Assembly: GCA_036398925.1 (NCBI GenBank)
Contig: DASWOB010000022.1
Location: 53,244 to 117,243 of the forward strand
Source: Thermoanaerobaculia bacterium
GTDB taxonomy: Bacteria > Acidobacteriota > Thermoanaerobaculia > Gp7-AA8
DNA: 64,000 nucleotides
Reading direction: 5' to 3'
In this document: positions 10,022 to 60,856 of the stretch, piece after piece
Layout of the letters: every line of letters starts with the position of its first letter
How positions within the stretch are numbered: the first letter of the stretch is position 1
Notes under the pieces: model-generated
Told to the model about the DNA's origin: nothing
Seen by the model: only the letters and a program-made list of their open reading frames with translations
The model's database searches: none
Translations under genes and position numbers: made by a program

Positions 10022-10130
10022 TCATAACCTCAAGATGTGGAGCACGGCGGTGCGGCACCGCCGCGCCCGGGCCGGGATTTTAAATTATGATCCCGAGTCT
10101 GTTTGTGAAATCCACATCGAGGTCAGCCAG

Positions 10131-12230
10131 ATGAAGGTTTACGCGGGTCCTGACATTCGCAACGTGGCGATCGTCGGGCACAACGACACGGGCAAGACGA
10201 CCCTGGTTTCACAGCTCCTCTTCAACGCCGGCGCGACCACGCGCCAGGGCCGGATCGAAGATGGAACGACCACCACGGATTTCGATCCGGATGAGATCGA
10301 GCGAAAGCATTCGATCTCGGCGGCGATCGCGTACGCGGAGTGGAAGAACACGAAGATCAACCTCCTCGACACGCCGGGCTTCGGCATCTTCATCATGGAA
10401 GCGAAGGGGGCGATGCGCGTCGCCGACTCCGCGGCCATCGTCGTCAGCGGCGTGACCGGCGTCGAAGTCACGACCGAGCGGGTCTGGAAGTTCGCGGAGG
10501 AGTTTCACCTGCCGCGCATCCTGATCGTGAACAAGATGGACCGCGAGCGCGCCTCGTCCGCACGCACGCTCGACGCGCTGCAGAAGAAGTTCGGCAAGAA
10601 CATCGTCCCCCTCCAGCTCCCGCTCGGGGAAGAGAAAGACTTCAGCGGCGTGGTCGACCTCATTTCCATGAAGGCTTACCAGTACGCCGCCGACGGCTCG
10701 GGCAAGGTCGAGGTGGTGGACATCCCGGCCAGCCACAAGGCGGACGCCGACGAATGGCGCGAGCGGCTGATCGAGAAGGTCGCGGAAGGCGACGACACGC
10801 TGATGGAGCGCTTCTTCGACCAGGGCGGCCTGTCGCAGGAAGAGCTGATCGATGGCCTCAAGCGCGAGGTCGCGCATCATCAGATCTACCCGGTCCTCTT
10901 CGCCTCGGCGTCGCACAACATCGGCGGTCATCCGATCCTCGATGCCTTCGTTTCGCTGCTCCCCTCGCCCGATGACGTCAAAGAGGTGCGGGGAACGAAT
11001 GCGAAGGGCGAACCGCTGACGTTCGATCGCCGGCCTGAGGCCTTCCCCTCCGCGCTCGTCTTCAAGACCTTTTCCGACCCGTTCTCGGGCCGCGTGTCGC
11101 TCTTCCGCGTTTACTCCGGCACGATCACCAGCGATCACGCCTACTGGAACAGCACCCGCGAGCACGAGGAACGCATCGGCAAGCTGCAGGTGCTGCAGGG
11201 GAAGACCCAGACCGCGGTGCAGGAGCTGCGCGCCGGTGACATCGGCGCGGTGGCGAAGCTGAAAGATACCGCCACCGGCGACACCCTCTGCGCGAAGGAC
11301 CACCAGATCCGCGTGCCGCACATCGACTACCCGGAAGCGGCGATCGCTTTTGCCGTGGAGCCGAAAGCGCGCGGCGACGAGGACAAGCTCGGCGCGGCCA
11401 TCCATCGTCTCATCGAAGAAGATCCGACCATCAAGTTCGCGCGCGACGAGCAGACCAAGGAGTTCCTCATCAGCGGTCAGGGACAGCTGCACGTCGAGAT
11501 CGTCGTCGCGAAGCTGAAGAAAAAGTACAACGTCGACGTGGTGCTCCATCCGCCGAAGGTGCCGTACCGCGAGACCATCACCAAGCCGGCCGACGCGCAC
11601 GGGCGGCACAAGAAGCAGTCGGGCGGCCACGGCCAGTTCGCCGACTGCAAGATCACGGTCGAGCCGCTGCCGCGCGGCGCCGACTTCGAGTTCGTCGACG
11701 AGATCTTCGGCGGCTCGATCCCCCGCCAGTACATCCCGGCCGTCGAGAAGGGCATCCAGGACGCGCGGGTGAAAGGCTACCTGGCCGGCTTCCCGATGGT
11801 CGACTTCCGGGTGCGGCTCAAGGATGGGCAGTACCACGACGTCGACTCGAGCGAAATGGCGTTCAAAATCGCTGGCTCGCTCGCCTATCAGGACGCGATG
11901 CAGAACGCCCGGCCGACGCTGCTCGAGCCGATCATGCACGTCGACATCTCCGCGCCGGCCGAATACGTCGGTGACATCATGGGCGACCTCAACGCGCGGC
12001 GCGGCCGCGTGGAGGGCGTCGATGCCGAAGAGGAAACGCAGACCATCAAGGCGCGTGTGCCGTTCAGCGAGATGCTGACCTACGGCTCGACGCTACGCTC
12101 GATCACGCAGGGACGCGGCACCTTCCACATGGAGTACTCGCATTACGAGGAAGTGCCGAAGCAACTGCAGGAAAAGATCATCAACGAGTCGAAGAAGGGC
12201 CACGGCGACGCCGCGGCCGCGCACCACTGA
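10131..12230 (+). CDS. Elongation factor G paralog (EF-G2-type translational GTPase)
   Basis: The ORF track starts at GTG 10035. The likely real start is the ATG at 10131 (MKVYAGPDIRNVAIVGHNDTGKTTL...), preceded by gagg. It has G1-G4 motifs, DTPGFGIF in place of the canonical DTPGHVDF, and EF-G domains II-V downstream. Confidence 0.85.
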   Translation: MKVYAGPDIRNVAIVGHNDTGKTTLVSQLLFNAGATTRQGRIEDGTTTTDFDPDEIERKHSISAAIAYAEWKNTKINLLDTPGFGIFIMEAKGAMRVADSAAIVVSGVTGVEVTTERVWKFAEEFHLPRILIVNKMDRERASSARTLDALQKKFGKNIVPLQLPLGEEKDFSGVVDLISMKAYQYAADGSGKVEVVDIPASHKADADEWRERLIEKVAEGDDTLMERFFDQGGLSQEELIDGLKREVAHHQIYPVLFASASHNIGGHPILDAFVSLLPSPDDVKEVRGTNAKGEPLTFDRRPEAFPSALVFKTFSDPFSGRVSLFRVYSGTITSDHAYWNSTREHEERIGKLQVLQGKTQTAVQELRAGDIGAVAKLKDTATGDTLCAKDHQIRVPHIDYPEAAIAFAVEPKARGDEDKLGAAIHRLIEEDPTIKFARDEQTKEFLISGQGQLHVEIVVAKLKKKYNVDVVLHPPKVPYRETITKPADAHGRHKKQSGGHGQFADCKITVEPLPRGADFEFVDEIFGGSIPRQYIPAVEKGIQDARVKGYLAGFPMVDFRVRLKDGQYHDVDSSEMAFKIAGSLAYQDAMQNARPTLLEPIMHVDISAPAEYVGDIMGDLNARRGRVEGVDAEEETQTIKARVPFSEMLTYGSTLRSITQGRGTFHMEYSHYEEVPKQLQEKIINESKKGHGDAAAAHH

Positions 12231-12357: not shown

Positions 12358-12990
12358 TTATTGTTTTTCGAGCGTGACGCGCAGCCGGGCCACGTCCTGC
12401 TGGGCGTCTTCCGCGGCGGTGACGATGAACTGGCGCTCGCGGTAACCGTCGGCCACGGCGCGGATGGTGTAACTGCCGGCTTGCGGCAGTTCGTAGATTT
12501 CATCCGTCGAGTCGAACTGCCTCGCCTCGCCGATCGGCATGTCGTTCACGTAGAGCATCGCGTCGGGCGGGGTGATCTCGAAGATCACGCCGCGCCGCGC
12601 CCACGTTCTCACGGTCGCGCTGACGCCGCCGGGGCCGCCGCTGACGACGGCGCGAGCATCGCCGCTGACCGGTTCGTTGGCCGATGGGACATTCTCTCCA
12701 TTGTCGCCCGGCACGACCAGCGACGCGCCGGCCTCCGGCTCTCCCGGAGGGGCCGGGCTGGTGGCGGTACGCTGCGCGCCGTTGCCCGGCACCATCTGCA
12801 CGAGCGTGCCGTCTCGATAACGCAGCCCGGTCATCACCGCGAGCGCCGCCAGTGCCGCGAGCACGACGCCGATGGCCACCGGCACCCAGCGGGGCATCGG
12901 TGCGGATTCGGGCTCGGGTGGCTGCGGCGGCTCTACCGCGGGCGGTTCAGGAAGTTGCTCCGTCATCATTCTCCGCCTGCGCGTTGTCAT
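12358..12990 (-). CDS. Membrane-anchored PEGA-domain-like protein
   Basis: 210-aa ORF. It has an N-terminal TM helix (WVPVAIGVVLAALAALAVMTGL), a Pro/Gly-rich linker and a C-terminal YTIRAVADGYRERQFIV segment resembling PEGA domains. Confidence 0.45.
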   Translation of the reverse strand: MTTRRRRMMTEQLPEPPAVEPPQPPEPESAPMPRWVPVAIGVVLAALAALAVMTGLRYRDGTLVQMVPGNGAQRTATSPAPPGEPEAGASLVVPGDNGENVPSANEPVSGDARAVVSGGPGGVSATVRTWARRGVIFEITPPDAMLYVNDMPIGEARQFDSTDEIYELPQAGSYTIRAVADGYRERQFIVTAAEDAQQDVARLRVTLEKQ

Positions 12991-13327
12991 CGATGGAGGC
13001 CGGCCCCTCGTCGGTCACGACCGTCTCGCCGTCGTCGTCGAGCTGCTGATACTGCGCTTCCCGGCTGCGCAGCAGCTCTGCCGCGCGCTGCTCGTCCTGC
13101 GAGCCGACGTAGATGCGGATGTCACCCATGGTCCCGAAGTTGATCGGCTCCATCGAAAACTTGAGGTTCTCGATCTGCGCCGGAATCCCTTCCGCTTCCA
13201 GGAACCCAGCCAGCAGTCTCGCCTCGTCGTCGGTTCCGCTGCTCGCGATCTCGACCCACGTCGCACCGCCCTCGGCAGGCACGGTGTTCACGTCATCGGG
13301 GAAATCCTTCGGATCCGCCATCTTCAC
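12947..13327 (-). CDS. DUF2007-like putative signal-transducing protein
   Basis: 126-aa ORF containing ARLLAGFLEAEGIPAQIEN, as in the DUF2007 family, and an acidic C-terminus. It overlaps the PEGA ORF start by about 44 nt. Confidence 0.4.
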   Translation of the reverse strand: MKMADPKDFPDDVNTVPAEGGATWVEIASSGTDDEARLLAGFLEAEGIPAQIENLKFSMEPINFGTMGDIRIYVGSQDEQRAAELLRSREAQYQQLDDDGETVVTDEGPASIDDNAQAENDDGATS

Positions 13328-13333
13328 TGCTCC

Positions 13334-14404
13334 TTACGCAACGATTGTGATGCGCCCGATGTCCCGGGTCACGCTGCCGACCTTTGCACAGAACAGGCCG
13401 CCTTCGGCGAAGCGCCGCTCGAGTCCGGCGGTCTTTTCGGGCGCGATCGCGATCAGGAGCCCACCCGACGTTTGCGCATCACACAACAACGTAAGTTCGC
13501 GTTCGGAGACCTGCGAACGGACGCGCTCACGAAACGTTGTCACGTTGCGCGCCGTCCCCTCCGGGCGGAAGCCGCGCGCGAGGAGCTCGCGCGCGCCGCT
13601 CAGCACCGGCACCGCCGAGGCGGAGATCGTCGCGCCGACGCCCGAGCCTTCGCACATCTCCAGCAGATGGCCGACCAAGCCGTAGCCGGTGATGTCGGTC
13701 GCGGCGCTGGCACGCTCCTCCACCATGATCTTCGCGGCGTCGCGGTTGAGCATCGTCATCCAGCGCACCGCTTCGTCGAGCGAAGGCGGCTCGCGGCGGA
13801 AGAATCGTCTGCCGTTGGCCGCGCGATAGGCGCTGATGACGATCCCGTTGCCGATCGGCTTGGTCAGGTAGAGGACGTCGCCGGCGCGCGCGGTCGAGTT
13901 GCGCAGCACGTCCGCGGTCTTGACGATGCCGGTGACCACGAGGCCGTACTTGGGGATGTCGTCGATGATGGTGTGGCCGCCGGCGACCGGAAAGCCGGCT
14001 TCGATCGCTTTGTCGGCGCCGCCCCGCAGGATCTCTTCGAGCACCTCGAGCGGCAGCTTGTCGGTGGGGAAGCCGGCAATGGCCAGGCCGAGGATCGGCG
14101 TTGCGCCCATGGCGTAGATGTCGGAGATGGCGTTCGTCGCCGCGATCTGGCCGAAGAGATAGGGATCGTCGACGATCGGCGTGAAGAAATCGACCGTCTG
14201 CGCGATGGCCGTGTCGCCGAAGATGCGCATCACCGCCGCGTCGTCGCCGGTCGAATTTCCGACCAGAAGATCCCCCATCCCATCCGTAGAAGGGAGCTTC
14301 GACAGGATCGAGCGCAGGTCATCCTGACCCAGTTTGCAGGCTCAACCGCCGGTCGTGGCGAAGGAGGAGAGCGCGGGATAGGCGCTCCGGAGCTTGTGCC
14401 TCAC
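13334..14404 (-). CDS. selD: Selenide, water dikinase (selenophosphate synthetase) carrying an in-frame UGA selenocysteine codon
   Basis: The ORF track gives 13334..14278 starting MGDLLVGNSTGDDAAV, which is truncated. Reading upstream in the same frame gives ...LRSAYPALSSFATTGG-TGA-ACKLGQDDLRSILSKLPSTDGMGDLLVG. This aligns with E. coli SelD HGAGCGCKISPKVLETIL, with the TGA at Cys17. The TGA is minus-strand, at plus coordinates 14342-14344. The best start is the GTG at 14402-14404. The rest matches SelD throughout (DFFTPIVDDPYLFGQIAATNAISDIYAMGA, GGHTI, LLCDAQTSGGLL). Confidence 0.8.
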
Positions 14405-14452
14405 GGGGGGAGTGTATCGGAGTGGGATGATGCTTGCGGGTGCTTTGCGGAC

Positions 14453-14731
14453 CTACGACGGCAGCGGCTCGTCGCCGGGAACCGCCTTGCGGGCGTTCTC
14501 GCACGCCATCAGCACTTCCTGGTAGAGATAGAAGGCGCGCTCCTTCGAGAGCGGCTCGTCGGCGCCGCGCTCGACGATCTCCGCGATCTGCGAGGCGTAA
14601 TGTGACGCCGGCGGCAGGCGCTCGCCCGATTGGTGGAGCTGCCGGAAGCCGAGCGTCAGCTCTTCCTCCAGCTGCTGGCGAAAGAGCCCGCTCTCCAGGT
14701 CAGCTTCGAGGGTGGCGTATTCGACGTTCAT
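14453..14731 (-). CDS. Hypothetical small protein (93 aa)
   Basis: The internal ATG at 14729-14731 overlaps the stop of the upstream HExxH gene (ATGA). Protein begins MNVEYATLEADLESGLFRQQLEEELTLGFRQ... The 5' extension in the ORF track is Arg-rich junk. Confidence 0.4.
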   Translation of the reverse strand: MNVEYATLEADLESGLFRQQLEEELTLGFRQLHQSGERLPPASHYASQIAEIVERGADEPLSKERAFYLYQEVLMACENARKAVPGDEPLPS

Positions 14732-15858
14732 TTCGCGGCGGTGTAGGCGACGCGCACGACGTTCCCCTCGTGCGTCACTTGCGGCGCGAGCTTGCGCGCG
14801 GTGAGAAACTTGCCGTACGCGTCGGCGAACTTCTTCGCGTGCGCGGGGGTTTCCCACCTGGTCTCGACCTTCACGCCGCCGTCTTTCAGGATCACGACGC
14901 GGTCGGCCATCCAGCCGCGGGCGTTCTCGGCGCCGGCGAGGTAGGCCCAGTGAAATTCGCCGAGATGCTCGACACTGAGGGCGCCCTCCGGCTTCTTGTC
15001 GTCGAACGCTTCCGGCTTGAACTTGCCGGAGAAGTAGTCCTCCGGGTGCAGGATCTCGCGCGTCGAGCGCGGCGGGTTCGCGTGGATCTTGTCGAGCTCT
15101 TTCCATCCGCCGCGGCGGTACGCCTCGACGACGAACGAGAGTCCGTCGAGGTAGGGAAACTTCAGCATTTCGCCGAAATACTTCGGCGCGCCGCCCAGAT
15201 CCATCGCGGCCTGTTCGGCCTTCGCGGCGTTGAGCACGGTCTTTGCGATGTTCTCATCGGCGAGCACGGTGTCGAGGTCGACGCCCATCGCACTCATCAT
15301 GTTGGCCAGCATCACCAGCACCGCTTCCCCTTCCAGGACGGCGTGGTAGGCGAGCATCGCGTCGGTATCGGTGCGCAGCTTCTTATCGCGCTCGCCGATG
15401 GCCCAGTGCTGGTCCTGCAGGGCGTGCATCAGCTCGTGCACCTGGACCATCTCCTCGACCATCTTCGGATCGGCGCCCTGGGCCATCTCGCTGATGCCGG
15501 GCGGCAGTTTGTCGATGGCGTAATAGATGTGGGTGTCGGCGTCGTAGAAAGCCAGCACCTGCGCTTCGTAGAGGCCGAGGAGCTTCGGCATGACCTCTTT
15601 CGCGTCGACGTCGACGAGCTGCAGCGCGCGGAGAATGCGGCTCCAGTCTTCGACCGTGTAGGGAAGATCCTTCCCCATCTGTTTCTGGAGGTGGGCGCGC
15701 AGGTCGGTGCGCTTGATCTCGGCCGTCTGCACGGTCCGGATGAACTTCCGGCCACGGATCTTTTCGACCGCCTCCATGTTGCCGGTGAGCGATCCGGCGA
15801 GGGCGGAAGAGGCGACGAGAAAAAGGGCGGCGAGGGATGCTGCGCGTCTGCCGGACAT
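14728..15858 (-). CDS. Secreted putative zinc metallopeptidase (HExxH motif VHELMHAL)
   Basis: 376-aa ORF with a signal peptide (MSGRRAASLAALFLVASSALAGS) and a single HELMH zincin motif. No closer family recognised. Confidence 0.5.
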   Translation of the reverse strand: MSGRRAASLAALFLVASSALAGSLTGNMEAVEKIRGRKFIRTVQTAEIKRTDLRAHLQKQMGKDLPYTVEDWSRILRALQLVDVDAKEVMPKLLGLYEAQVLAFYDADTHIYYAIDKLPPGISEMAQGADPKMVEEMVQVHELMHALQDQHWAIGERDKKLRTDTDAMLAYHAVLEGEAVLVMLANMMSAMGVDLDTVLADENIAKTVLNAAKAEQAAMDLGGAPKYFGEMLKFPYLDGLSFVVEAYRRGGWKELDKIHANPPRSTREILHPEDYFSGKFKPEAFDDKKPEGALSVEHLGEFHWAYLAGAENARGWMADRVVILKDGGVKVETRWETPAHAKKFADAYGKFLTARKLAPQVTHEGNVVRVAYTAAK

Positions 15859-18239: not shown

Positions 18240-20036
<1,797 letters not shown>

Positions 20037-20098
20037 TGGCGGGCCAATTAACACGGTTCCGCCCCTTTGTCATCCCGCAGGGGCCGCTTTTTGGCCCT

Positions 20099-27229: not shown

Positions 27230-28702
27230 GTGTCACTCCGTAGACGTATGAGTGATGAAACGCGTGTCGCTGCCGCCATCGAACCGACCGCCCCTGGCGA
27301 GTCGAATATTCGTTCCTTCCAGAACCGCGGCGCGGAGATGCGCTTTCACGGTGCGGGCGAGCTGCGGGGGCTCAACGTCCCGCGCTCCTGGTACTTTGAC
27401 AGCGGCCGCTTCGGGCGGCTCTTTCCGATGCTGCCGCCGTTTCACGCCGATCCCGGCGCGCTGCTCGAGCTGGGCAAAGCGGGCGGCCCGATGGACGGAG
27501 GCCTGACCGCTCCCGACAATCCGTCGGGCCTACCTGTAGGGTTCACGTTCCTCGGCCAGTTCATCGATCACGACATCACCTTCGATCCGACCTCGAGCCT
27601 CGAACGGCAGGTCGATCCGGAAGCGGTCGCGAACTTCCGAACGCCGACGCTGGAGCTGGACAACGTGTACGGCTCCGGGCCGGGTGCCAGTCCGCATCTG
27701 TACGACCGCCGCAATCGCAACAAACTACTGATCGGCGACGGCACGACCACGCACGACGTGCCGCGCAATGCGCAGGCCGTCGCGCTGATCGGCGATCCAC
27801 GCAACGACGAGAACCTGATCGTCTCGCAGATTCACCTCGCATTCCTCCGCTTCCACAATGCGGTCGTCGACGACGTCGCAACAACGCCGGTGCCGGGACG
27901 GAGCACGTTCGAGGAGGCGCAGCGGCGCGTGCGCTGGCACTACCAGTGGATGATCGTCCACGAGTTCCTCCCGCACATCGTCGGCAAAAAGATGGTGGAG
28001 GACGTGCTGAAGAATGGGCGGAAGTTTTACGACTGGCGTCACGAGCCGTTCATGCCCGTCGAGTTCTCCGTCGCTGCTTATCGGTTCGGCCACAGCCAAG
28101 TGCGGCCCGGCTACACGCTGCGGCCCGGCAAGCAGTTCCCGATCTTCGTCGCCGACCCGCCACCGCCCGATCAACCGCGCAAGGACCTCTCCGGCAGCCG
28201 CCCCATCGCTGCCGATGAGACGATCGAGCAAGCGCTGTTCTTCAAGCTTCAGGGGCCGCCGCCGGCCAGTAAAGCGATCGACACGAAGCTCTCCTCACCG
28301 CTGCTCAATCTGCCGCTCTTCGGGTTGCCGGACAAACATCCGGAACGCTCGCTCGCCACGCGCAATCTGCTGCGCCATCTGACGTTCGGCTTGCCCACCG
28401 GACAGGCGGTCGCACAGGCTATGAGCGAAACACCGCTCACACCGGACGACCTGAAGGCGGTGCGCGATCTCGGTTTCGATCAGGAGACGCCGCTCTGGTA
28501 CTACATCCTGGCCGAGGCGGAGCTGGAGGAGAAAGGCGCACACCTCGGCGCCGTCGGTGGAAGGATCGTCGCGGAGGTGCTGATCGGCCTGATCCAGGGA
28601 GATCGGATGTCGTACCTCCGGCAAAATCCAAAGTGGAAGCCGTTCCTCGGTAAGGACGGCGACTTCACGATGGCCGATCTCTTCGCACTGATCGGCGCGT
28701 AG
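27230..28702 (+). CDS. Animal-type heme peroxidase family protein (PF03098-like)
   Basis: 490-aa ORF starting 17 nt after the SDR stop. Hallmarks: FLGQFIDHDITFD (distal His region) and AAYRFGHSQV (proximal His region), as in bacterial peroxidase / cyclooxygenase-like family members. Confidence 0.8.
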   Translation: MSLRRRMSDETRVAAAIEPTAPGESNIRSFQNRGAEMRFHGAGELRGLNVPRSWYFDSGRFGRLFPMLPPFHADPGALLELGKAGGPMDGGLTAPDNPSGLPVGFTFLGQFIDHDITFDPTSSLERQVDPEAVANFRTPTLELDNVYGSGPGASPHLYDRRNRNKLLIGDGTTTHDVPRNAQAVALIGDPRNDENLIVSQIHLAFLRFHNAVVDDVATTPVPGRSTFEEAQRRVRWHYQWMIVHEFLPHIVGKKMVEDVLKNGRKFYDWRHEPFMPVEFSVAAYRFGHSQVRPGYTLRPGKQFPIFVADPPPPDQPRKDLSGSRPIAADETIEQALFFKLQGPPPASKAIDTKLSSPLLNLPLFGLPDKHPERSLATRNLLRHLTFGLPTGQAVAQAMSETPLTPDDLKAVRDLGFDQETPLWYYILAEAELEEKGAHLGAVGGRIVAEVLIGLIQGDRMSYLRQNPKWKPFLGKDGDFTMADLFALIGA

Positions 28703-39185: not shown

Positions 39186-39470
39186 TCAGCGCAGGCGGTA
39201 GCGCCAGTAGCCAGGCTTGCGGCTGTGGTGCGCCACCGCAATGACATAAATCTCGTGGGCGTGTTCCAGGTACACGATCGAGCACCTGAATCTGGCGATT
39301 CGGAACTGGCGCACGCCACGTCTGTCGTGGCCAATCCTCGGGTACGCGGCGAGATCGTGCGCCTTAGCCCAGAAAGCATCGAGAAACTCGTCCGCGCGAC
39401 TGCCTTCCAGAGACAGTGCGCGTTCCAGCAACTCTTCCTCAGCCTCTGCGTGCAGTCGTACGGGCAGCAC
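39186..39470 (-). CDS. Type II toxin, RelE/ParE family
   Basis: 94-aa ORF ...RRGVRQFRIARFRCSIVYLEHAHEIYVIAVAHHSRKPGYW has the typical ParE/RelE C-terminal core. It overlaps the upstream antitoxin ORF. Confidence 0.7.
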   Translation of the reverse strand: MLPVRLHAEAEEELLERALSLEGSRADEFLDAFWAKAHDLAAYPRIGHDRRGVRQFRIARFRCSIVYLEHAHEIYVIAVAHHSRKPGYWRYRLR

Positions 39471-39702
39471 TCAACTTCGCTCGCACTCGCTCGATCGATT
39501 CTTCGATGGGATACGTCACCGCTGTCCCGGCCCGGATCTCGTCGGCACGGCGCTCCGCGACATCAAGCCACGCCTCCTGAACTTCACGCTCCTCGTCGCT
39601 GAGCGTGCTCTCCCACAACTCGTCGGCAAGCACGCTCCGCTCCTCGAAGCTGAGCCGCATCGCCTCGTCGCGCACTTCGTCGAACGTTCTGGCCATACGC
39701 AA
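39439..39702 (-). CDS. Antitoxin, putative addiction-module component (TIGR02574/Unstab_antitox-like)
   Basis: 87-aa ORF M(RM)ARTFDEVRDEAMRLSFEERSVLADELWESTLSDEEREVQEAWLDVAERRADEIRAGT matches the LS.EER..LA.EL..SL...W..E..RR consensus. Confidence 0.65.
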   Translation of the reverse strand: MRMARTFDEVRDEAMRLSFEERSVLADELWESTLSDEEREVQEAWLDVAERRADEIRAGTAVTYPIEESIERVRAKLSAARTTARRG

Positions 39703-42166: not shown

Positions 42167-43168
42167 CTAGACCAGCCACTTCCCGACCCAGGTGGTCAGC
42201 CAGAAGGTGAGCGCCCCGATCAGGGCCGCCATCGGGATGGTCAGTACCCACGCCCAGACGATCCGGCCGGCGATGCCCCAGCGGACGGCGGAGAGCCTCC
42301 GCGTGGCACCAACGCCGACGATGGCCCCGGTGATGGTGTGGGTGGTCGAGACCGGCACGCCGATGGCCGTGGCGATGAAGAGCGCGATGGCGCCGGCGGT
42401 CTCTGCCGCAAAGCCGCCCACCGGCTGGAGGCGGGTGATCTTCGAGCCCATGGTGTGGATGATCCGCCAGCCGCCGCTGAGCGTACCCAGAGCGATGGCG
42501 GCGTGCGCGGCCAGGACGACCCACGTCTGGATCTCGAAAGTCTTGAGATAGCCGGCCGTGAAGAGCACGCCGGCGATGATGCCCATCGTCTTCTGCGCGT
42601 CGTTGCCGCCGTGGCCGAGCGAGTAGAGCGCCGCCGAGACGAGCTGGAGCCTGCGGAAGATCCGGTCGACCTTCCGCGGATGCGCGTTGCGGAAGGTCCA
42701 CATGGTGGCGGAGGTGATGACCAGCGCCAGCGTCAGGCCGATCAGCGGCGCGAGGATGATGTAGATGAGGGTCTTGGTCCAGCCGGAGAGGATGATCGCG
42801 CCGAAGCCGGCATTTGCGATCGCGGCGCCGGCGTAGCCGCCGATGAGCGCGTGCGAGGAGCTGGTCGGCAGGCCGAAGTACCAGGTGATGAGGTCCCAGA
42901 TGATCGCCCCCATCAGCCCGCCGAAGATGACGGCGAAGTTGACGGCGTCGAGGTCGATCATCCCCTTGCCGATGGTCTTGGCCACGGCCGTGCCGAAGGT
43001 GAACGCGGCGATGAAGTTGAAGAACGCTGCCCAGACCACCGCCTGCCCCGGCGTCAGCACGCGCGTCGAAACGACCGTGGCGATCGAGTTCGCGGCGTCG
43101 TGGAAGCCGTTGATGTAGTCGAACGCCAGGGCGACGACGATCAGGGCGATGACGGTCAGCAGCAGCAT
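42167..43168 (-). CDS. pitA: Inorganic phosphate transporter, PiT family
   Basis: 333-aa polytopic ORF with the PiT signatures NGFHDAANSIAT and GHGGNDAQKTMGII. Confidence 0.85.
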   Translation of the reverse strand: MLLLTVIALIVVALAFDYINGFHDAANSIATVVSTRVLTPGQAVVWAAFFNFIAAFTFGTAVAKTIGKGMIDLDAVNFAVIFGGLMGAIIWDLITWYFGLPTSSSHALIGGYAGAAIANAGFGAIILSGWTKTLIYIILAPLIGLTLALVITSATMWTFRNAHPRKVDRIFRRLQLVSAALYSLGHGGNDAQKTMGIIAGVLFTAGYLKTFEIQTWVVLAAHAAIALGTLSGGWRIIHTMGSKITRLQPVGGFAAETAGAIALFIATAIGVPVSTTHTITGAIVGVGATRRLSAVRWGIAGRIVWAWVLTIPMAALIGALTFWLTTWVGKWLV

Positions 43169-43171
43169 CGA

Positions 43172-43792
43172 TCAGCCATGCTTGACGACGATGTTCTCGA
43201 GGAGGTTCGCCACATCCTCGCAGGCATCGGTTGCTTCCTCGAGGATGTCGAGGATCTCTTTCCACTTGATGACCTGGATCGGGTCCTTCTCTTCGTCGAA
43301 GAGCTGGCCGATGGAGGCTTTGTGGATGCGATCGGCCTCGTTTTCGAGCCGGTTGATCTCGATGGCGCGCTGGAGGACCCCCTCCCGCTTCTCGAGCGCC
43401 TCGATCGCGGAGCGGATCTCGCCGGTCTGTTCGATGATCACCCGGGCCAGCTCACGGGCCCCGCCGCGCACCTTCTCGATGCGATAGAGCGGGAAGAGGG
43501 CCGCGGCGCTGTCGATCGCGTCCATCACGTCGTCGAGCGTCTTCGCCAGCGAGTGGATGTCCTCGCGGTCGATGGGGGTGACGAAGGTCTTGTTGAGGCG
43601 CTGGATGATCTCGTGAGTCAGAAAGTCGCACTTGTGCTCGACTTCTTTGATCTCGTGGGCCTTGTCGTAGTGCGGTGGGTCGGTCGCCAGCAGCTGCTCG
43701 AGCAGGCGTGCGCCGACGCGCAACTGATCCGCCATCAGCTTGAAGTCTTCGTAGAACTTTTCTTCACGCGGAATCAGACGAAATTTTGCCAA
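43172..43792 (-). CDS. DUF47/PhoU-like phosphate transport regulator (PiT accessory protein)
   Basis: 206-aa ORF MAKFRLIPREEKFYEDFKLMADQL... is typical of TIGR00153/DUF47. It lies immediately upstream of pitA in the same orientation. Confidence 0.8.
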   Translation of the reverse strand: MAKFRLIPREEKFYEDFKLMADQLRVGARLLEQLLATDPPHYDKAHEIKEVEHKCDFLTHEIIQRLNKTFVTPIDREDIHSLAKTLDDVMDAIDSAAALFPLYRIEKVRGGARELARVIIEQTGEIRSAIEALEKREGVLQRAIEINRLENEADRIHKASIGQLFDEEKDPIQVIKWKEILDILEEATDACEDVANLLENIVVKHG

Positions 43793-43827
43793 GGCGTGAC
43801 CCTCCCGGAAAGGCGCGGCGGATTCTA

Positions 43828-45168
43828 CTATGCCGCGGGGAGGCGCACTTCAAATGTCGCTCCGCGGCCACCCTCGCGATTCCAGACCGCGATCCGGCCG
43901 CCGTGCAGGACCACCAGGTGCTTGGTGATGGCCAGCCCCAGGCCGGTGCCGGGGACGTTCTGGGAGCGGCTCCGGTCGACCCGGTAGAAGCGGTGGAAGA
44001 TCCGTTCGAGCTCGGCCGGCGGAATCCCCTCCCCCTCGTCGGACACGCGCACCACCGCCTCCTCCCCTTCCTGCGCCACTTCGATCAGCACCTCTCCCCG
44101 TCCCCCGCCATGCTTCCACGCGTTGTCGAGGAGATTCGAGACGATCTGCTGGGCACGCTGAGAGTCGACGTTGGCCCGTGCCGGCTCCCCCTCGACGCGA
44201 AATACCAGACCGTCGGCGCGGCCGCGGAACTCGCTGCAGAGCTCCTCGGCCAGTTCGCGCAGGTCGACCGCCCGCCGCTGCAGCGAGACCCGTCCCGCTT
44301 CGATGTTGTTCAGGTCGGAGAGGTCCTTCACCAGCCGCTCGATCCGCCCGAGCTGCCGCAGCATCACCTCCCGCAACTGGCGCTCGAGCTCCGGCTCGAC
44401 CCCCTCCTCCAGCGTCTCCACCGCGCTGCGCAGGCCGGCCAGCGGCGTCCGCACCTCGTGGGAGAAGTCGTCCAGGAACTCCTTCCGGATGCGCTGCAGC
44501 CGTTCGAGCTGGGTGACGTCGATGAAGAGCGCCACCGCCGCGATCTCGTTCGATGCCTCCACCGGGAAGACGCGCACTTCGATCTGCCGCTCGTGCATCT
44601 CGATCCGGTCGTTCGACGGATGCCCCTGCAGCGCTTTGTCGAGCGCCTGGACGATCGACTGCTGCCGCACGACCTCGAGAAAAGACCGGCCGATCGGATT
44701 CGCACCGCCGCCGAAGATCTCCGAGACGCGTGGATTCGCGAACACCACCCGGCCGCGCGGATTCACAGCAATCAAGCCTTCGCCGAGGGAGGCGACGATC
44801 TCCTCCATCGCCGCGCGGTGCTCCTCGTGCGCCTGGCGCTGGCGAAGGATCGTCGCGCGCAGCTCTTCGACTCCGCGGGCGATGTCATCCAGCTCGCCGT
44901 GAAACACGCGGTCGGCGATCGGCCTGTCGACCTGCCCCTCCGCCAGCGCGCGCGTCCGCTCCGTCAGGAGGTCGAGATCGTTCGCACGCCGTACCGCCCA
45001 GAGAAAGACGCCGCTCCACGGCAGGAGGAAGAGGAGAAAGCTGATGATGGCCAGCACCACCGCCGCCGGCTGCTCCACCCCGGCCCGATCGAGCGCGGCG
45101 CCGAATCCCCACGCCACCGCGATGGCGATGACGAGCGAAACGTAAAGCAGGAGTCGTAAGGGATGCAT
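43828..45168 (-). CDS. phoR: Sensor histidine kinase (PhoR-like)
   Basis: Likely start is the ATG at 45168 (MHPLRLLLYVSLVIAIAVAW...). It has two TM segments, then a HAMP/PAS-like region, the H box FSHEVRTPLAGL, and N, G1 and G2 boxes (LDNAWKHG, GTGLGLAI). The ORF-track 5' extension translates the CCTCAAT repeat hairpin. Confidence 0.8.
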   Translation of the reverse strand: MHPLRLLLYVSLVIAIAVAWGFGAALDRAGVEQPAAVVLAIISFLLFLLPWSGVFLWAVRRANDLDLLTERTRALAEGQVDRPIADRVFHGELDDIARGVEELRATILRQRQAHEEHRAAMEEIVASLGEGLIAVNPRGRVVFANPRVSEIFGGGANPIGRSFLEVVRQQSIVQALDKALQGHPSNDRIEMHERQIEVRVFPVEASNEIAAVALFIDVTQLERLQRIRKEFLDDFSHEVRTPLAGLRSAVETLEEGVEPELERQLREVMLRQLGRIERLVKDLSDLNNIEAGRVSLQRRAVDLRELAEELCSEFRGRADGLVFRVEGEPARANVDSQRAQQIVSNLLDNAWKHGGGRGEVLIEVAQEGEEAVVRVSDEGEGIPPAELERIFHRFYRVDRSRSQNVPGTGLGLAITKHLVVLHGGRIAVWNREGGRGATFEVRLPAA

Positions 45169-45180
45169 GGCGGCTGCGCC

Positions 45181-45262
45181 GGATTGAGGATTGAGGGATT
45201 GAGGATTGAGGAAGAGGATCGCGCAGCCTTCCTCAATCCTCAATCCTCAATCCTCAATTCCC
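45181..45262. repeat. Intercistronic hairpin built from tandem heptamers: (ATTGAGG)x4 versus (CCTCAAT)x4
   Basis: ggattgaggattgagggattgaggattgaggaag ... cttcctcaatcctcaatcctcaatcctcaattcc. It fills the phoB-phoR intergenic gap, and its right arm overlaps the phoB stop codon. Confidence 0.8.
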
Positions 45263-45949
45263 TTCGAACCGGTATCCGTATCCGATCACCGTATGGATCC
45301 GGTCCTTGCCGATCTTCTTGCGCAGGTTGCGCACGTGCGCATCGACCGTCCTGGTCTCGACGTCTTCCGCGACCTGCCAGACCTCGGACAGAATCCGGTC
45401 GCGCGAGACCACCGCCGGGCGGTTGCGCACCAGCATCCAGAGCAGCTCGAGCTCTTTCTTGGCCAGCTTCACCTCGTCGCCGTCGACGTAGACCCGCAGC
45501 GTGCGCCCGTCGATGCGCAGCTGTCCGTCGTCGTAGACGCTGGCGTCGTCGTCGCTCCCCTTCGCGCGGCGGAGGATCGCCGCGACGCGGGCCAGCAGCT
45601 CGCGGACGCTGAACGGCTTCACCAGGTAATCGTCGGCGCCGAGCTCCAGGCCGAGAATGCGGTCCGCTTCGCCGGAGCGGGCGGTGAGCATCAGGATCGG
45701 CAGCTTCGCGGTGGCCGGATGGCGGCGCAGCTCGCGGCAGATCGTGAAGCCGTCGAGGTCGGGGAGGTTCAGGTCGAGCACCAGAAAGTCGAAGCCCCCC
45801 TGCTGCACGCCGAGGAGCCCCTCGTGGCCGTTCTGGAAGCGCGTCACGCCGTAGCCCTCGCGCTCGAGGTTGAGGCCGATGGTGAACGACAGGTCGGCGT
45901 CATCCTCGATGAGAGCCACCCGCGCGACGGAGCTTCTAGGCCGATTCAT
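45254..45949 (-). CDS. phoB: OmpR/PhoB-family response regulator
   Basis: 231-aa ORF with a receiver domain (ALIEDDADL...LVLDLNLPDLDG...LMLTA) and a winged-helix output domain (LLWML...TVDAHVRNLRKKI). It is located within the pst-phoU cluster. Confidence 0.85.
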   Translation of the reverse strand: MNRPRSSVARVALIEDDADLSFTIGLNLEREGYGVTRFQNGHEGLLGVQQGGFDFLVLDLNLPDLDGFTICRELRRHPATAKLPILMLTARSGEADRILGLELGADDYLVKPFSVRELLARVAAILRRAKGSDDDASVYDDGQLRIDGRTLRVYVDGDEVKLAKKELELLWMLVRNRPAVVSRDRILSEVWQVAEDVETRTVDAHVRNLRKKIGKDRIHTVIGYGYRFEGN

Positions 45950-46591
45950 GACTGTGCTTGATCACTTTGCCTTCGACCAGGTAGACCACCATCTCGCAGA
46001 TGTTGGTGGCGTTGTCGGCCATCCGCTCGAAGTACTTGCCGATGAAGGTCAGCCGGATGGCGCGCGAGATGTTGCGCGGGTCTTCCAGCATGTACGTCAG
46101 CAGTTCGCGGAAGCTCTGCTCGGTCAGGCGGTCGACTTCATCGTCGCGCAGGATGACCTGCCGCGCCAGCACCGCGTCGCCGCGCACGAAGGCGTCGAGC
46201 GACTGCCGCACCATGTCCTGGGCGATCCGCGCCAGGCGCGGGATGTCGATCATCGGCTTGAGCGGCGGCTCGCGATTCAGCTCGATGGCGCGCTCGCAGA
46301 CGTCGACCGCCAGGTCGGCGATACGCTCCAGCTCCGGCGTGATCTTCATCGCCGTCGCCACCAGCCGCAGGTCGCCCGCGGCCGGCTGCATCTTCGCGAT
46401 CAGCTCCACCGTGTGCGCGTCGATCTCCAGCTCCATTCGGTCGATCTCGCTGTCGGAGGCGATGACCGCCTCCGCGACCTGCGTGTCGCGCTCCAGCAGC
46501 GCGCGGATCGATTCGTTGATCTGGTCCTCGACCATCGCGCCCATGCGCAGCAGCCGCTCTTTCAGCTCTTCAATCTCTCTGTCGAAATGTC

Positions 46592-46595
<4 letters not shown>
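45936..46595 (-). CDS. phoU: Phosphate signalling complex protein PhoU
   Basis: From the ATG at 46595: [33 protein letters not shown]... (219 aa). Two PhoU repeats with the conserved E..D and IA(K/R) features. The ORF-track extension upstream is junk. Confidence 0.85.
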
Positions 46596-47455
<860 letters not shown>

Positions 47456-47458
47456 CGG

Positions 47459-48442
47459 TCAGCCCTTGAGCCGCGACCGGGTGCGCGTACGGATGATCAC
47501 GCCGGTGAGGTTGAGCAGAAACGTCAGCGCCAGCAGCACGAACACCGTGCCGTAGAGCAGCGGCTTGGTCGCCTCGACGTCCGGCGACTGCGTCGAAAGA
47601 ATCAGCACGTGATAGCCGAGGTGCATGAACTGGTCGGTCACGTCGCCCGGCAGGTACGGCAGGTAGTACGCCGCGCCGGTGAAGAGGATCGGCGCGACCT
47701 CACCGGCACCGCGGGAGATGCCGAGGATGGCCCCGGTCAAAATGCCCGGCAGCGCACCCGGCAGCACCACCCGCCGGATCGTCTCCCACTGCGTCGCACC
47801 GAGCGCCAGCGACGCTTCGCGCAGATCGGCCGGAATGGTCCGCAACGCTTCCTCCGTCGCCACGATCACCGTCGGCAGCGTCAGCAGCGCCAGCGTGCAG
47901 GCGGCCCACAGCAGCGAGCCCTGTCCCCACAGCACCTCGCCCTGCGGCTGCGTCGCGCGATCGATGCTCCGTCCGATGAAGTTGATGAAGAAGCCGAGAC
48001 CGAAGAGGCCGAAGACGATCGACGGAACGCCCGCCAGGTTGGCCACGGCGCTGCGGGTGACGTTGGCCATCAGCGCCGAGACCGCGCGCAGGAAGAGCTT
48101 CTTCCGGTCGGGCCGCCCCTTCGACGCTTTGAAGCGGCTCCACGCGCGGCCGAAGCCTTCCGCCGGCGTGTATTCGTGCAGGTAGATCGCGGTCGCGACG
48201 CCGAGCGGCACCGCCGCCACCGTCATCAGCAGCACCAGCATCGCCGTGCCGACGATGGCCGGTCCGATCCCTCCCTCCGTCAGCCCCGCCCGCGGCGCCT
48301 CGGTGATGAAACTCCAGCTCACCGTGCGTGCGCCGTGCAGGACCACGTTGCCGAGGATCACCACCAGGATCGCCAGGATCAGCACGACGCTGAAGCCGAG
48401 CAGACCGATGGCCAGACGATCGGCGACACGACGGCTGGTCAT
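47459..48442 (-). CDS. pstA: Phosphate ABC transporter permease PstA
   Basis: 327-aa polytopic ORF with the EAA-like motif (EASLALGATQWETIRRVVLP) typical of PstA. Confidence 0.85.
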   Translation of the reverse strand: MTSRRVADRLAIGLLGFSVVLILAILVVILGNVVLHGARTVSWSFITEAPRAGLTEGGIGPAIVGTAMLVLLMTVAAVPLGVATAIYLHEYTPAEGFGRAWSRFKASKGRPDRKKLFLRAVSALMANVTRSAVANLAGVPSIVFGLFGLGFFINFIGRSIDRATQPQGEVLWGQGSLLWAACTLALLTLPTVIVATEEALRTIPADLREASLALGATQWETIRRVVLPGALPGILTGAILGISRGAGEVAPILFTGAAYYLPYLPGDVTDQFMHLGYHVLILSTQSPDVEATKPLLYGTVFVLLALTFLLNLTGVIIRTRTRSRLKG

Positions 48443-49377
48443 GACGCCCCCTGCATCCGTCCCTGCATCTTCCGGATGACCAGCTGGCCGAGGCTGTTGC
48501 TGATGAAGGTGATGACGAAGAGCAGCGTGCCCATGAAGAAGAGCGCGGAGTAGTGCGCGCTGCCGACCACCACCTCACCCATCTCCGCGGCGATCGTCGC
48601 GGAGAGCGTGCGCAGCGGATCGAGCAGCGACAGCGACGTGATGGCCGCGTTGCCGCCCGCCATCAGCAGGATCATCGTCTCGCCGATGGCCCGCCCGAAC
48701 GCGAGCACGAATGACGCGAAGACCGCCGGCGCCGCGGCCGGCAGCACGACGTTCCACGCGGTCTGGAACTTCGACGCGCCGAGGGCATACGACGCCTCCC
48801 GATACGAGCGCGGCACCGCCGCCAGTCCATCCTCGGAAATCGTGTAGACGATCGGCACGAGCGCGAAGCCGAGCGCCAGTCCCGCGTTGACGGCGTTCAG
48901 CCGATAGGTGAATCCGAACGCGTCCTGCAGCCACGTCGCCAGGACGATCAGCGCGAAGAAGCCCATCACCACCGAGGGGATGCCGGCCAGCAGCTCGATG
49001 ATCGGCTTGATCACCTCGCGCAGGCGAGGCGGCGCGAACTCGGAGGAAAAAAGCGCCGCCGCGACGCCGACCGGACAGGCGAAGAGGAGGCCGACCAGCG
49101 TCGCTTTCAGCGTGCCGAGGATGATCGGGATCAGCGAGACCTTCGGACGCTCCGAGGTCGGCTGCCAGACGTAGCGATCGGTGATGGTCGGCCCTTCCTG
49201 CGCCTCGACGAAGAAGGCCTCGAGGTTGGCCTCCTTCTTCACTTCCGGGTCGGTGAAGATCGGGATCGTCTCCTTGAACGTGAAGAGAAAGATCAGAAAG
49301 ATGAAGACGATCGCCACCCAGCCGGCGATCGAAAAGACGCCGGTCATCAGCGAGTTGAACGCGTAGCGACGCCTCAT
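48439..49377 (-). CDS. pstC: Phosphate ABC transporter permease PstC
   Basis: Likely start is the ATG at 49377, overlapping the pstS stop (ATGA): MRRRYAFNSLMTG... It is polytopic with the EAA-like EASYALGASKFQTAWNVVLP. Confidence 0.85.
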   Translation of the reverse strand: MRRRYAFNSLMTGVFSIAGWVAIVFIFLIFLFTFKETIPIFTDPEVKKEANLEAFFVEAQEGPTITDRYVWQPTSERPKVSLIPIILGTLKATLVGLLFACPVGVAAALFSSEFAPPRLREVIKPIIELLAGIPSVVMGFFALIVLATWLQDAFGFTYRLNAVNAGLALGFALVPIVYTISEDGLAAVPRSYREASYALGASKFQTAWNVVLPAAAPAVFASFVLAFGRAIGETMILLMAGGNAAITSLSLLDPLRTLSATIAAEMGEVVVGSAHYSALFFMGTLLFVITFISNSLGQLVIRKMQGRMQGAS

Positions 49378-50270
49378 TTGGTGGTGCTGAGAGGCTGTGT
49401 TGTAAGAGGAAAGTAGCCGACCTGCGTGACGAGCTTCTGCGCGTCCGGCGTGACCGCCCACTGCGCGAACTTCGTCACCCGCTCCGGCGCGTTGGCGGTG
49501 TAGTAGAAGAAGAGCTTGCGGCTGAGCGGATACGTCCCGTCCGCGACCGTCGACTCATTCGGCTCGACCGGCGCCTTGCCGCTGTCGGAGATACCGAGCG
49601 GGCGGACTTCCTTGGCGTAGGCGATGCCGCCATAACCGATGCCGTTCTTGTCCTGGCCGACCGCGTTGATGATGGCCGCGGTCCCCTGCAGCGTCTGCAC
49701 GCGCGGCGAAAAGTCTTCCTTCGCCAGGACGTGCTCGCGGAAGTAGTCGTACGTACCGGACGAGCTCTCGCGGCCGTAAAGCACGATCGGTGCGTTCGTC
49801 CCGCCGAGCTGCTGCCAGTTCGTGACCTTCCCCTGGAAGACGTCCTTCACCTGCGCGACGGTCAGCGTCCTGACCGGATTGGAGGCGTGCACGAACACCG
49901 CGAGGGCATCGAGCGCCACCGCGTGCTCGACCACCTCGGCGCCACGGCTCTTCGCCGCCTTCGCCTTCTCATCACCCTTCATCGGGCGCGACGACTGCGC
50001 GAGGTCGACTGTCCCGTTGATCAGCGCCGCGATCCCGGTGCCGCTGCCGCCCCCATTGACCTGCACCACCGTCCCGGCATTTGCCTTCATGTACTCCTCG
50101 GCCAGCCGCTGCCCGAGGATGACCATCGTGTCCGATCCCTTGATCGAAAGCGGCTTGCTGTTCCCGCCGCTCTTCGGCGCCGCACCATCGGAGCTCCTGC
50201 GCTCCCCCCCACCACACCCGACGGTGAGCACGAGCGCCGCTGTAAAGACAATTCGAGCCACAGAGTTCAT
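49374..50270 (-). CDS. pstS: Phosphate ABC transporter substrate-binding lipoprotein PstS
   Basis: 298-aa ORF with lipobox LTVGCGG. It has GSDT, NGGGSGTG and other PstS/PBP-like motifs. It is the first gene of the pst operon. Confidence 0.85.
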   Translation of the reverse strand: MNSVARIVFTAALVLTVGCGGGERRSSDGAAPKSGGNSKPLSIKGSDTMVILGQRLAEEYMKANAGTVVQVNGGGSGTGIAALINGTVDLAQSSRPMKGDEKAKAAKSRGAEVVEHAVALDALAVFVHASNPVRTLTVAQVKDVFQGKVTNWQQLGGTNAPIVLYGRESSSGTYDYFREHVLAKEDFSPRVQTLQGTAAIINAVGQDKNGIGYGGIAYAKEVRPLGISDSGKAPVEPNESTVADGTYPLSRKLFFYYTANAPERVTKFAQWAVTPDAQKLVTQVGYFPLTTQPLSTTK

Positions 50271-60763: not shown

Positions 60764-60856
60764 TGGCGGAGAGAGAGGGATTCGAACCCTCGGTAGAGCT
60801 TTAGACCCTACGGCGGTTTAGCAAACCGCTGGTTTCAGCCACTCACCCATCTCTCC
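60764..60856 (-). tRNA. tRNA-Ser (anticodon GCU), class II with long variable arm
   Basis: The reverse complement folds as GGAGAGA-UG-GGUGAGUGGCUGAAACC-A-GCGGU UUGCUAA ACCGC-variable arm CGUAGGGUCUAAAGCUCUACCG-GAGGG UUCGAAU CCCUC-UCUCUCC-G-CCA. Anticodon loop UU-GCU-AA. The T-loop GTTCGAATC is present and CCA is encoded. Confidence 0.8.

Follow-up and report, generated by a model that had tools for sequence, protein, structure and literature searches.

Does the selD gene of an uncultured Thermoanaerobaculia bacterium (Acidobacteriota) begin where gene finders place its start, or does it extend upstream through an in-frame TGA that is read as selenocysteine (Sec)? The question is raised by a stretch of 64,000 nucleotides (nt) from contig DASWOB010000022.1 (assembly GCA_036398925.1, positions 53,244 to 117,243), hereafter referred to as the window, whose minus strand carries an open reading frame (ORF) for a selenide, water dikinase (selenophosphate synthetase, SelD). 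The original prediction for this locus, made from the sequence alone, was that the gene call misses the N-terminus of a selenoprotein. The comparative analysis presented here leads to the same answer: selD is very probably a selenoprotein gene that starts at GTG 14404 and whose UGA at codon 21 would be read as Sec by means of a hairpin of the selenocysteine insertion sequence (SECIS) type. This arrangement is of a known kind; new are the lineage in which it occurs and the gap that it has left in the annotation. The coordinates of all features are compiled in Table 1.

The minus-strand frame of the 314-amino-acid (aa) ORF is open in the 5' direction through one TGA (14344-14342) up to a stop codon at 14455-14453. 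Its translation from the GTG at 14404-14402 results in a reading frame of 356 codons, in which the peptide spanning the TGA reads ...LSSFATTGG-*-ACKLGQDDLRSILSKL. For the protein searches the TGA was translated as Cys. The 356-aa query scored 383.6 bits against TIGR00476, the selD equivalog model of NCBIfam (cut-off 125), and 348.4 bits against NF002098 (cut-off 299), and both matches begin upstream of the TGA at residues 10-12 (TIGR00476 at residue 12). The Pfam domains AIRS (PF00586, residues 53-161) and AIRS_C (PF02769, residues 173-348) represent the two-domain architecture of PurM-like proteins, and matches among the solved structures were SelD of Escherichia coli (PDB 3u0o; E = 2e-74 over residues 12-346) and the SelD chain of Aquifex aeolicus (PDB 2yye; E = 3e-60). 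Judged from these matches, the 356-aa gene encodes the selenide, water dikinase SelD of this bacterium.

In the alignment with 3u0o, residue 21 (TGA) pairs with Cys17 and Lys24 with Lys20 of E. coli SelD, and the motif 'TTGG-U-ACK' of the N-terminal glycine-rich loop lines up with 'HGAG-C-GCK'. Cys17 and Lys20 are both needed for the activity of the E. coli enzyme. The site also aligns with the Cys in 'SSGCAAKVG' of the A. aeolicus chain, which presumably represents a Sec-to-Cys substitution in the deposited structure. The predicted Sec is hence located in the glycine-rich loop (GG-U-ACK), three residues ahead of the essential lysine.

The distribution of the TGA was investigated by a scan of one genome per species, which retrieved 80 related loci with 64-78% identity, all of them from metagenome-assembled genomes of Thermoanaerobaculia/Acidobacteriota. 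As one of the six search patterns held the Cys form, the sampling did not favour TGA. The equivalent of codon 21 is TGA in 77 of the 80 relatives and TGT or TGC in the remaining three. Together with the window there are 78 TGA forms, on which all codon statistics of these forms are based, and they are paired with seven Cys orthologues in all and with the Cys of E. coli SelD. TGA at the same time serves as an ordinary stop more often than any other codon of the window (25 of 48 genes) and terminates 37 of the 81 selD orthologues, thus indicating that it has not been reassigned in these genomes.

The codons in front of the TGA bear the signature of a translated sequence. Codons -9 to -1 (LSSFATTGG) are invariant at the protein level in 75-78 of the 78 TGA sequences, and their synonymous entropy amounts to 1.15-1.93 bits per codon with the exception of the Phe codon (0.34), compared to a gene-wide mean of 1.03. 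Protein invariance in combination with varying synonymous sites shows that this region is translated in the predicted frame, and the upstream codons are under protein-level purifying selection. All 81 sequences have a start codon (GTG in 77, ATG in four) at a distance of 19-20 codons 5' of the Sec/Cys position. In many relatives the upstream open frame comprises just 22-23 codons, which leaves this GTG or ATG as the sole possible start there. The original prediction had identified the gene as selD, had placed the UGA exactly at the catalytic Cys position, and had proposed the GTG start with a normal length of 356 aa; it had pointed to SelD models and to the upstream codons of close relatives as the places where its reading would stand or fall. 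All of this is borne out by the family matches, which begin ahead of the TGA, by the alignment with E. coli SelD and by the conservation pattern. Its range had to be trimmed at one end, because it extended to 14460 and thus about 56 nt too far; positions 14405-14452 are non-coding.

The region downstream of the TGA is constrained in a different manner. A short hairpin, GGGUCAGGAUGACCU, occupies positions 14330-14316 and begins 11 nt past the A of the UGA, i.e. where the original prediction had located a SECIS element. It consists of five Watson-Crick pairs, one G-U pair and the 3-nt loop GGA, and represents the RNAalifold consensus structure over the 78 TGA sequences, in which 99.4% of the cells are paired. 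Its codons GGT, CAG, GAT and GAC have no synonymous substitutes in 77-78 of the 78 TGA sequences, and among stretches of seven codons the one from codon +2 has the lowest synonymous entropy of the whole gene (0.109 bits versus the mean of 1.03). The loop starts with G-G in 77 TGA forms, the exception being L040 with GUC, and its first base lies 17 nt from the A of the UGA. The minimum free energy (MFE) is -11.9 kcal/mol for the segment from UGA to +44; the lower stem UGAGC/GCUCG of this fold is partly conserved, with positions +31 and +35 being variable. The published model of bacterial SECIS elements (bSECIS; PMC13188914) specifies a loop of 3-9 nt on an upper stem of 4-16 bp, a G within the first two loop positions, a UGA spacing of 16-37 nt and an MFE of at most -7.5 kcal/mol. 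The hairpin of the window lies within all four constraints if the energy is taken from the fold of UGA to +44, so that the folding analysis that the original prediction had called for is in agreement with its expectation.

The seven Cys-form orthologues, three from the genome scan and four metagenome loci reached via full-length database proteins, provide a natural control. All of them encode the peptide CACKLGQ(D/A)DLR, the same as in the TGA forms. The stem is nevertheless intact in 78 of 78 TGA forms versus two of seven Cys forms (Fisher p = 6e-7, a value that overstates independence because the 85 sequences are related). In the five Cys forms that have lost it (e.g. GGG CAG GAC GAT), the energy of the hairpin segment ranges from -1.1 to -4.1 kcal/mol in comparison to -6.5 kcal/mol in the window sequence. 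The two exceptions are L033 (TGT) and L088 (TGC), whose stems match the remnant SECIS elements that have been described in SelD and FdhA after Sec-to-Cys conversion (PMC1794560; also PMC13188914). The identity of the peptide on both sides makes the comparison a clean natural experiment, in which the bSECIS is frozen together with the UGA and decays after conversion to Cys. The hairpin is under RNA-level selection and decays where the UGA became a Cys codon, and we infer that the residue inserted at the UGA is Sec.

The following sequence of events is proposed. Translation would be initiated at GTG 14404 of an mRNA that is probably leaderless, and the ribosome would reach the UGA at codon 21. 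The hairpin 11 nt downstream (stem GGUCA/UGACC, loop GGA) would act as a bacterial SECIS, and Sec would be placed at the equivalent of E. coli Cys17 in the glycine-rich loop.

Several results weigh against this interpretation, and the first group concerns the hairpin. The relatedness of the 85 sequences inflates the significance of its association with TGA. The core hairpin alone (-6.5 kcal/mol) is weaker than the bSECIS threshold of -7.5 kcal/mol. Folds of 50 nt and 76 nt of the window sequence were not more stable than those of shuffled sequences (z = 0.10 and -1.09), so that it is the comparative data that speak for the hairpin. The pairs are invariant among the TGA forms and show no classical covariation, the sole covariation-like change being a replacement of the basal G-U by A-U in two sequences. 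Support for the hairpin accordingly comes from the freezing of synonymous sites and from its loss in Cys forms, not from compensatory changes. Rfam returned no SECIS or tRNA-Sec match, neither in the whole window at gathering thresholds nor in the segment 14200-14420 at E values up to 10; a tRNA-Ser at 60767-60856 was its only RNA match.

The second group concerns the decoding machinery. Searches of the 64-kb window with ARAGORN, Rfam and Pfam detected no selA, selB, tRNA-Sec or selU gene; among the 46 window ORFs scanned with Pfam, none has a domain of SelA or SelU or one that is specific for SelB. The same holds true for the surroundings: no sel genes are present in the 7.5 kb past the window start, which harbor ribosomal proteins L21 and L27, Obg and others, and the flanks of the 80 relatives (6 kb) likewise yielded no selA, selB or selU. 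The tRNA-Sec was looked for with ARAGORN in the window and in 60 related loci (L001-L060), and none was detected. A tblastn search with E. coli SelA, SelB and SelU (approximate query sequences) against the window and 85 loci (~1 Mb) yielded only weak GTPase-domain matches to LepA and EF-G. The genes for SelA, SelB, SelU and tRNA-Sec are often unlinked to selD, so the claim is not weakened by their absence from its vicinity. Because the UGA is conserved and associated with a SECIS, we infer that SelB, SelA and tRNA-Sec are encoded elsewhere in the genome. A crude scan for other selenoprotein genes, i.e. in-frame TGAs with coding signal on both sides, gave only neighbouring genes in the same frame.

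The two translational GTPases that flank the selD cluster, an EF-G paralogue of 731 aa and LepA of 604 aa, lack SelB-specific domains. The sole tRNA of the window is a tRNA-Ser (GCT) of 93 nt, which resembles tRNA-Sec in its long arm but has a Ser anticodon and a normal tRNA score of 58.1 bits.

Among the alternative explanations, the one that fares best is a read-through of the UGA without Sec, either by near-cognate insertion of Trp or Cys or by a read-through signal as in the SECIS-less SPS1-UGA genes of Hymenoptera; SECIS-independent read-through of UGA has been described for insect SPS genes (PMC4561486). The Sec machinery of the organism is predicted rather than observed, and the conserved RNA constraint further downstream (see below) lies outside the minimal bSECIS model, both of which would be compatible with this scenario. 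A signal of a different nature would have to account for a hairpin that fits the bSECIS model, with G-G opening a small apical loop at a spacing of 17 nt, and for a codon at the known catalytic Sec/Cys position that alternates with Cys codons only among the relatives. General misreading of UGA is difficult to reconcile with its role as the commonest ordinary stop of the window. Moreover, we know of no bacterial case of this kind, and we consider this explanation very unlikely.

Alternatively, the UGA might be a true stop, so that the product is an N-terminally truncated protein translated from an internal start (Met42) or the gene a decaying pseudogene. The public records seem to speak for it at first sight, because the public gene calls give products of 294-336 aa that start 3' of the TGA (294-332 aa in ENA, JGI and Logan), and nearly every public protein record of these genes is truncated; the 314-aa product of the window, beginning with MGDLLVG, is on record in exactly this form in ENA, JGI and Logan assemblies, and the NCBI TPA entries 'selenide, water dikinase SelD [Thermoanaerobaculia bacterium]' begin with 'MGQDDL', i.e. 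at a CTG four codons past the TGA. The lack of Sec machinery near selD points in the same direction. The full-length entries that were inspected (349-394 aa) are, however, exactly those with Cys at the site, and no downstream start is conserved: residue 42 is Met in few relatives and otherwise Leu, Val, Ala or others. A stop at the UGA would leave the protein-level purifying selection on the preceding 19-20 codons and their conserved start codon without explanation, and truncation would deprive the protein of the loop with the equivalents of Sec/Cys17 and Lys20. The gene body has remained undamaged in 80 genomes and has the score of a full SelD equivalog, which is not the picture of a pseudogene. 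A genuine stop is accordingly hardly credible, and the claim of the original prediction that gene calling misses the N-terminus is corroborated by the public records of both the window and its relatives.

The possibility that the TGA is a Cys codon altered by faulty sequencing or assembly, against which the original prediction had cautioned, is effectively refuted: TGA is one base from TGC and TGT, and Cys codons are found in three close relatives of the 80-genome scan and in seven orthologues in all, but the 190-nt region that includes the TGA is identical in three assemblies from different pipelines (ENA ERZ27253109 k141_784984 and JGI 3300034146 Ga0334964_000031, which are records of the 142-kb metagenome contig that holds the window, and Logan SRR10955009, the Logan one being independent), and the same codon is TGA in 77 other genomes from many studies.

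If selD is a selenoprotein gene, the practical consequence is above all an annotation correction for a whole bacterial class. SelD would be shortened by 24-60 residues in the ENA, JGI and NCBI records of most sampled Thermoanaerobaculia genomes (77 of 80), and the truncation removes the catalytic loop, so automated surveys would miss the use of Sec in an abundant class of soil and sediment bacteria. From a Sec-dependent SelD it follows that Sec decoding is a trait of the class and that selenium is among its requirements. It also follows that the system is a self-reinforcing loop, since Sec is required to synthesize the very enzyme that supplies the selenium donor. Our knowledge of selenoprotein biology is unchanged. 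Among the selenoprotein families of bacteria, SelD and FdhA have the widest distribution (PMC1794560), and Sec-containing SelD ranks second among those of prokaryotes. Acidobacteria were listed with selenoproteins already in 2006, and in the collection of papers that was searched none paired Thermoanaerobaculia with selenocysteine.

The selD start codon is preceded by a TANNNT hexamer, which begins at a distance of 12-13 nt in 68 of 77 relatives and of 12-15 nt in 75 of 77, compared to a background frequency of 0.0015 per nt. It is mostly TACCAT or TAAGAT in the relatives and TACACT in the window. A scan for the sigma-70 consensus found nothing near selD, and this -10-like motif was recognized only by comparing relatives. 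No Shine-Dalgarno-like sequence is visible upstream of the selD start. The conserved hexamer together with the lack of a Shine-Dalgarno-like sequence suggests that the selD mRNA is probably leaderless, which would place the UGA 60 nt from its 5' end.

Synonymous constraint that is specific for the Sec forms extends beyond the hairpin. Codons 5 (GGT), 16 (CTC), 21 (GGG) and 25 (CTT) after the UGA reach a fixation of at least 86% in TGA forms, compared to a retention of 0-43% in Cys forms; codon 23 (GGG) is likewise fixed in TGA forms and free in the seven Cys forms. Among the 48 strongly fixed synonymous columns of the gene, those least kept in Cys forms are codons 25 (0/7), 16 (1/7) and 5 (2/7), followed by codons 21, 70 (AAC) and 97 (CCG) with 3/7 each. 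The three least-retained columns, and four of these six, are thus located within 25 codons past the UGA. The region includes a candidate second hairpin, whose closing C-G pair is changed to G-C or U-A in some Cys forms, with weak covariation statistics. A three-helix model composed of the SECIS hairpin, a helix of positions 35-41/69-75 and hairpin 2 (82-87% paired) is not claimed here, as its covariation is unconvincing. One might envisage a composite recoding element near the 5' end that comprises the SECIS, about 70 nt of Sec-specific constraint and candidate hairpin 2 on a leaderless-looking mRNA, but we regard such an element as doubtful. If real, it might couple leaderless initiation to Sec insertion or tune the synthesis of SelD to the selenium supply.

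The organization of the selD neighbourhood on the minus strand (12358-15858) is kept across the class, with the order DUF8575, 92-aa ORF, selD, DUF2007 and a 210-aa Pro-rich protein. DUF2007 follows selD in 79 of 80 relatives, and also in three Cys-form metagenome loci, and the 210-aa gene is next in 75 of 80. Near its 3' end, selD contains a frozen block of four codons, CTG TTC TAT GCA, with TGT instead of TAT in the window. These non-preferred codons are the same in 72-77 of the 78 TGA forms and in all seven Cys forms, and they lie 58-69 nt upstream of the DUF2007 gene. The pattern reads as a nucleotide-level constraint that is unrelated to Sec.

Three further observations concern the remainder of the window. 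A small type II toxin-antitoxin pair consists of a ParE toxin and an 'Unstab_antitox' partner. A phosphate-uptake region comprises a PHO4 transporter with its PhoU_div partner, a PhoR/PhoB-like two-component pair and a pstSCAB-like ABC transporter. Finally, a domain of the animal haem peroxidase family (PF03098, E = 2e-21), seldom seen in bacteria, is part of a 490-aa protein.

Table 1. Features of the selD locus and further elements of the 64,000-nt window
Feature	Position	Strand	Description	Basis
Full-length selD coding sequence	13334-14404	-	356 codons including the predicted Sec codon, then TAA at 13336-13334	Translation; HMM, Pfam and PDB matches
selD start codon GTG	14402-14404	-	GTG or ATG kept at the equivalent place	81/81 sequences
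In-frame TGA	14342-14344	-	Residue 21, equivalent to E. coli SelD Cys17	Translation, alignment, relatives, three assemblies
Core of the putative bacterial SECIS hairpin	14316-14330	-	GGGUCA-GGA-UGACCU; stem 14330-14325 with 14321-14316, apical loop GGA 14324-14322	RNAalifold, synonymous sites
Whole putative SECIS stem-loop	14309-14344	-	Includes lower stem UGAGC/GCUCG	MFE fold UGA to +44, -11.9 kcal/mol
Sec-form-specific synonymous constraint	14267-14335	-	Codons +3 to +25 after UGA; includes possible hairpin 2	Codon fixation in TGA versus Cys forms
Candidate hairpin 2	14279-14294	-	CCCUUC/GAAGGG, +50 to +65	86.7% paired, weak covariation
-10-like hexamer TACACT	14411-14416	-	Ends 6 nt before GTG	Comparison of relatives
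Truncated ORF as publicly called	13334-14278	-	314 aa, from internal Met42	ORF list; exact product on record
Frozen block in selD	13396-13385	-	Codons 337-340	
DUF8575 gene	14728-15858	-		
92-aa ORF	14453-14731	-		
DUF2007 gene	12947-13327	-		
Gene for 210-aa Pro-rich protein	12358-12990	-		
EF-G paralogue	10035-12230	+	731 aa	
LepA	18240-20054	-	604 aa	
tRNA-Ser (GCT)	60764-60856	-	93 nt	
Toxin-antitoxin pair	39186-39702	-		
Phosphate-uptake region	42167-50270	-		
Haem peroxidase domain protein	27230-28702	+	490 aa	

The locus can be compared with four known systems. The first are the Sec-containing SelD proteins of other bacteria (A. aeolicus 2yye/2zod; catalogue in PMC1794560), which belong to the same family and have the same N-terminal loop. 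A UGA followed by a hairpin within the coding sequence is common to the known members and to selD of the window, and Sec-to-Cys conversions that leave a remnant SECIS (PMC1794560) have their counterparts in L033 and L088. The window gene differs in its lineage (Thermoanaerobaculia), in the 3-nt GGA loop on a short stem of 5-6 bp, in its mRNA, which is probably leaderless and has the UGA at codon 21, and in the Sec-specific constraint that reaches to +77 nt. E. coli SelD (3u0o) shares the GxGC/U-xCK loop and the Asp-containing motifs, with DDAAV, VDFFTPIVDDP, NAISDIYAMG and ATDITGYGL lining up; in contrast to the window gene it has Cys (TGC) and no SECIS, and it is called at full length by ordinary gene finders. 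The bacterial SECIS elements of the E. coli fdhF type and the consensus model of bSECISearch (cited in PMC13188914) resemble the hairpin in being a stem-loop right 3' of the UGA within the ORF, with G-G in a small loop, a spacing of 17 nt (16-37 allowed) and an upper stem of 5-6 bp. We take its position about 11 nt past the UGA to match that of the minimal fdhF upper stem-loop. The window hairpin nevertheless has no sequence similarity to fdhF, lacks the bulged U and has a loop of only 3 nt. The eukaryotic SEPHS2/SPS2 genes, finally, encode the Sec form of this enzyme, in which Sec occupies the homologous site, and follow the same self-referential logic (PMC4561486), but their SECIS is a kink-turn in the 3' untranslated region that is read by SBP2 and EFSec, whereas the putative signal of the Thermoanaerobaculia gene is located inside the ORF.

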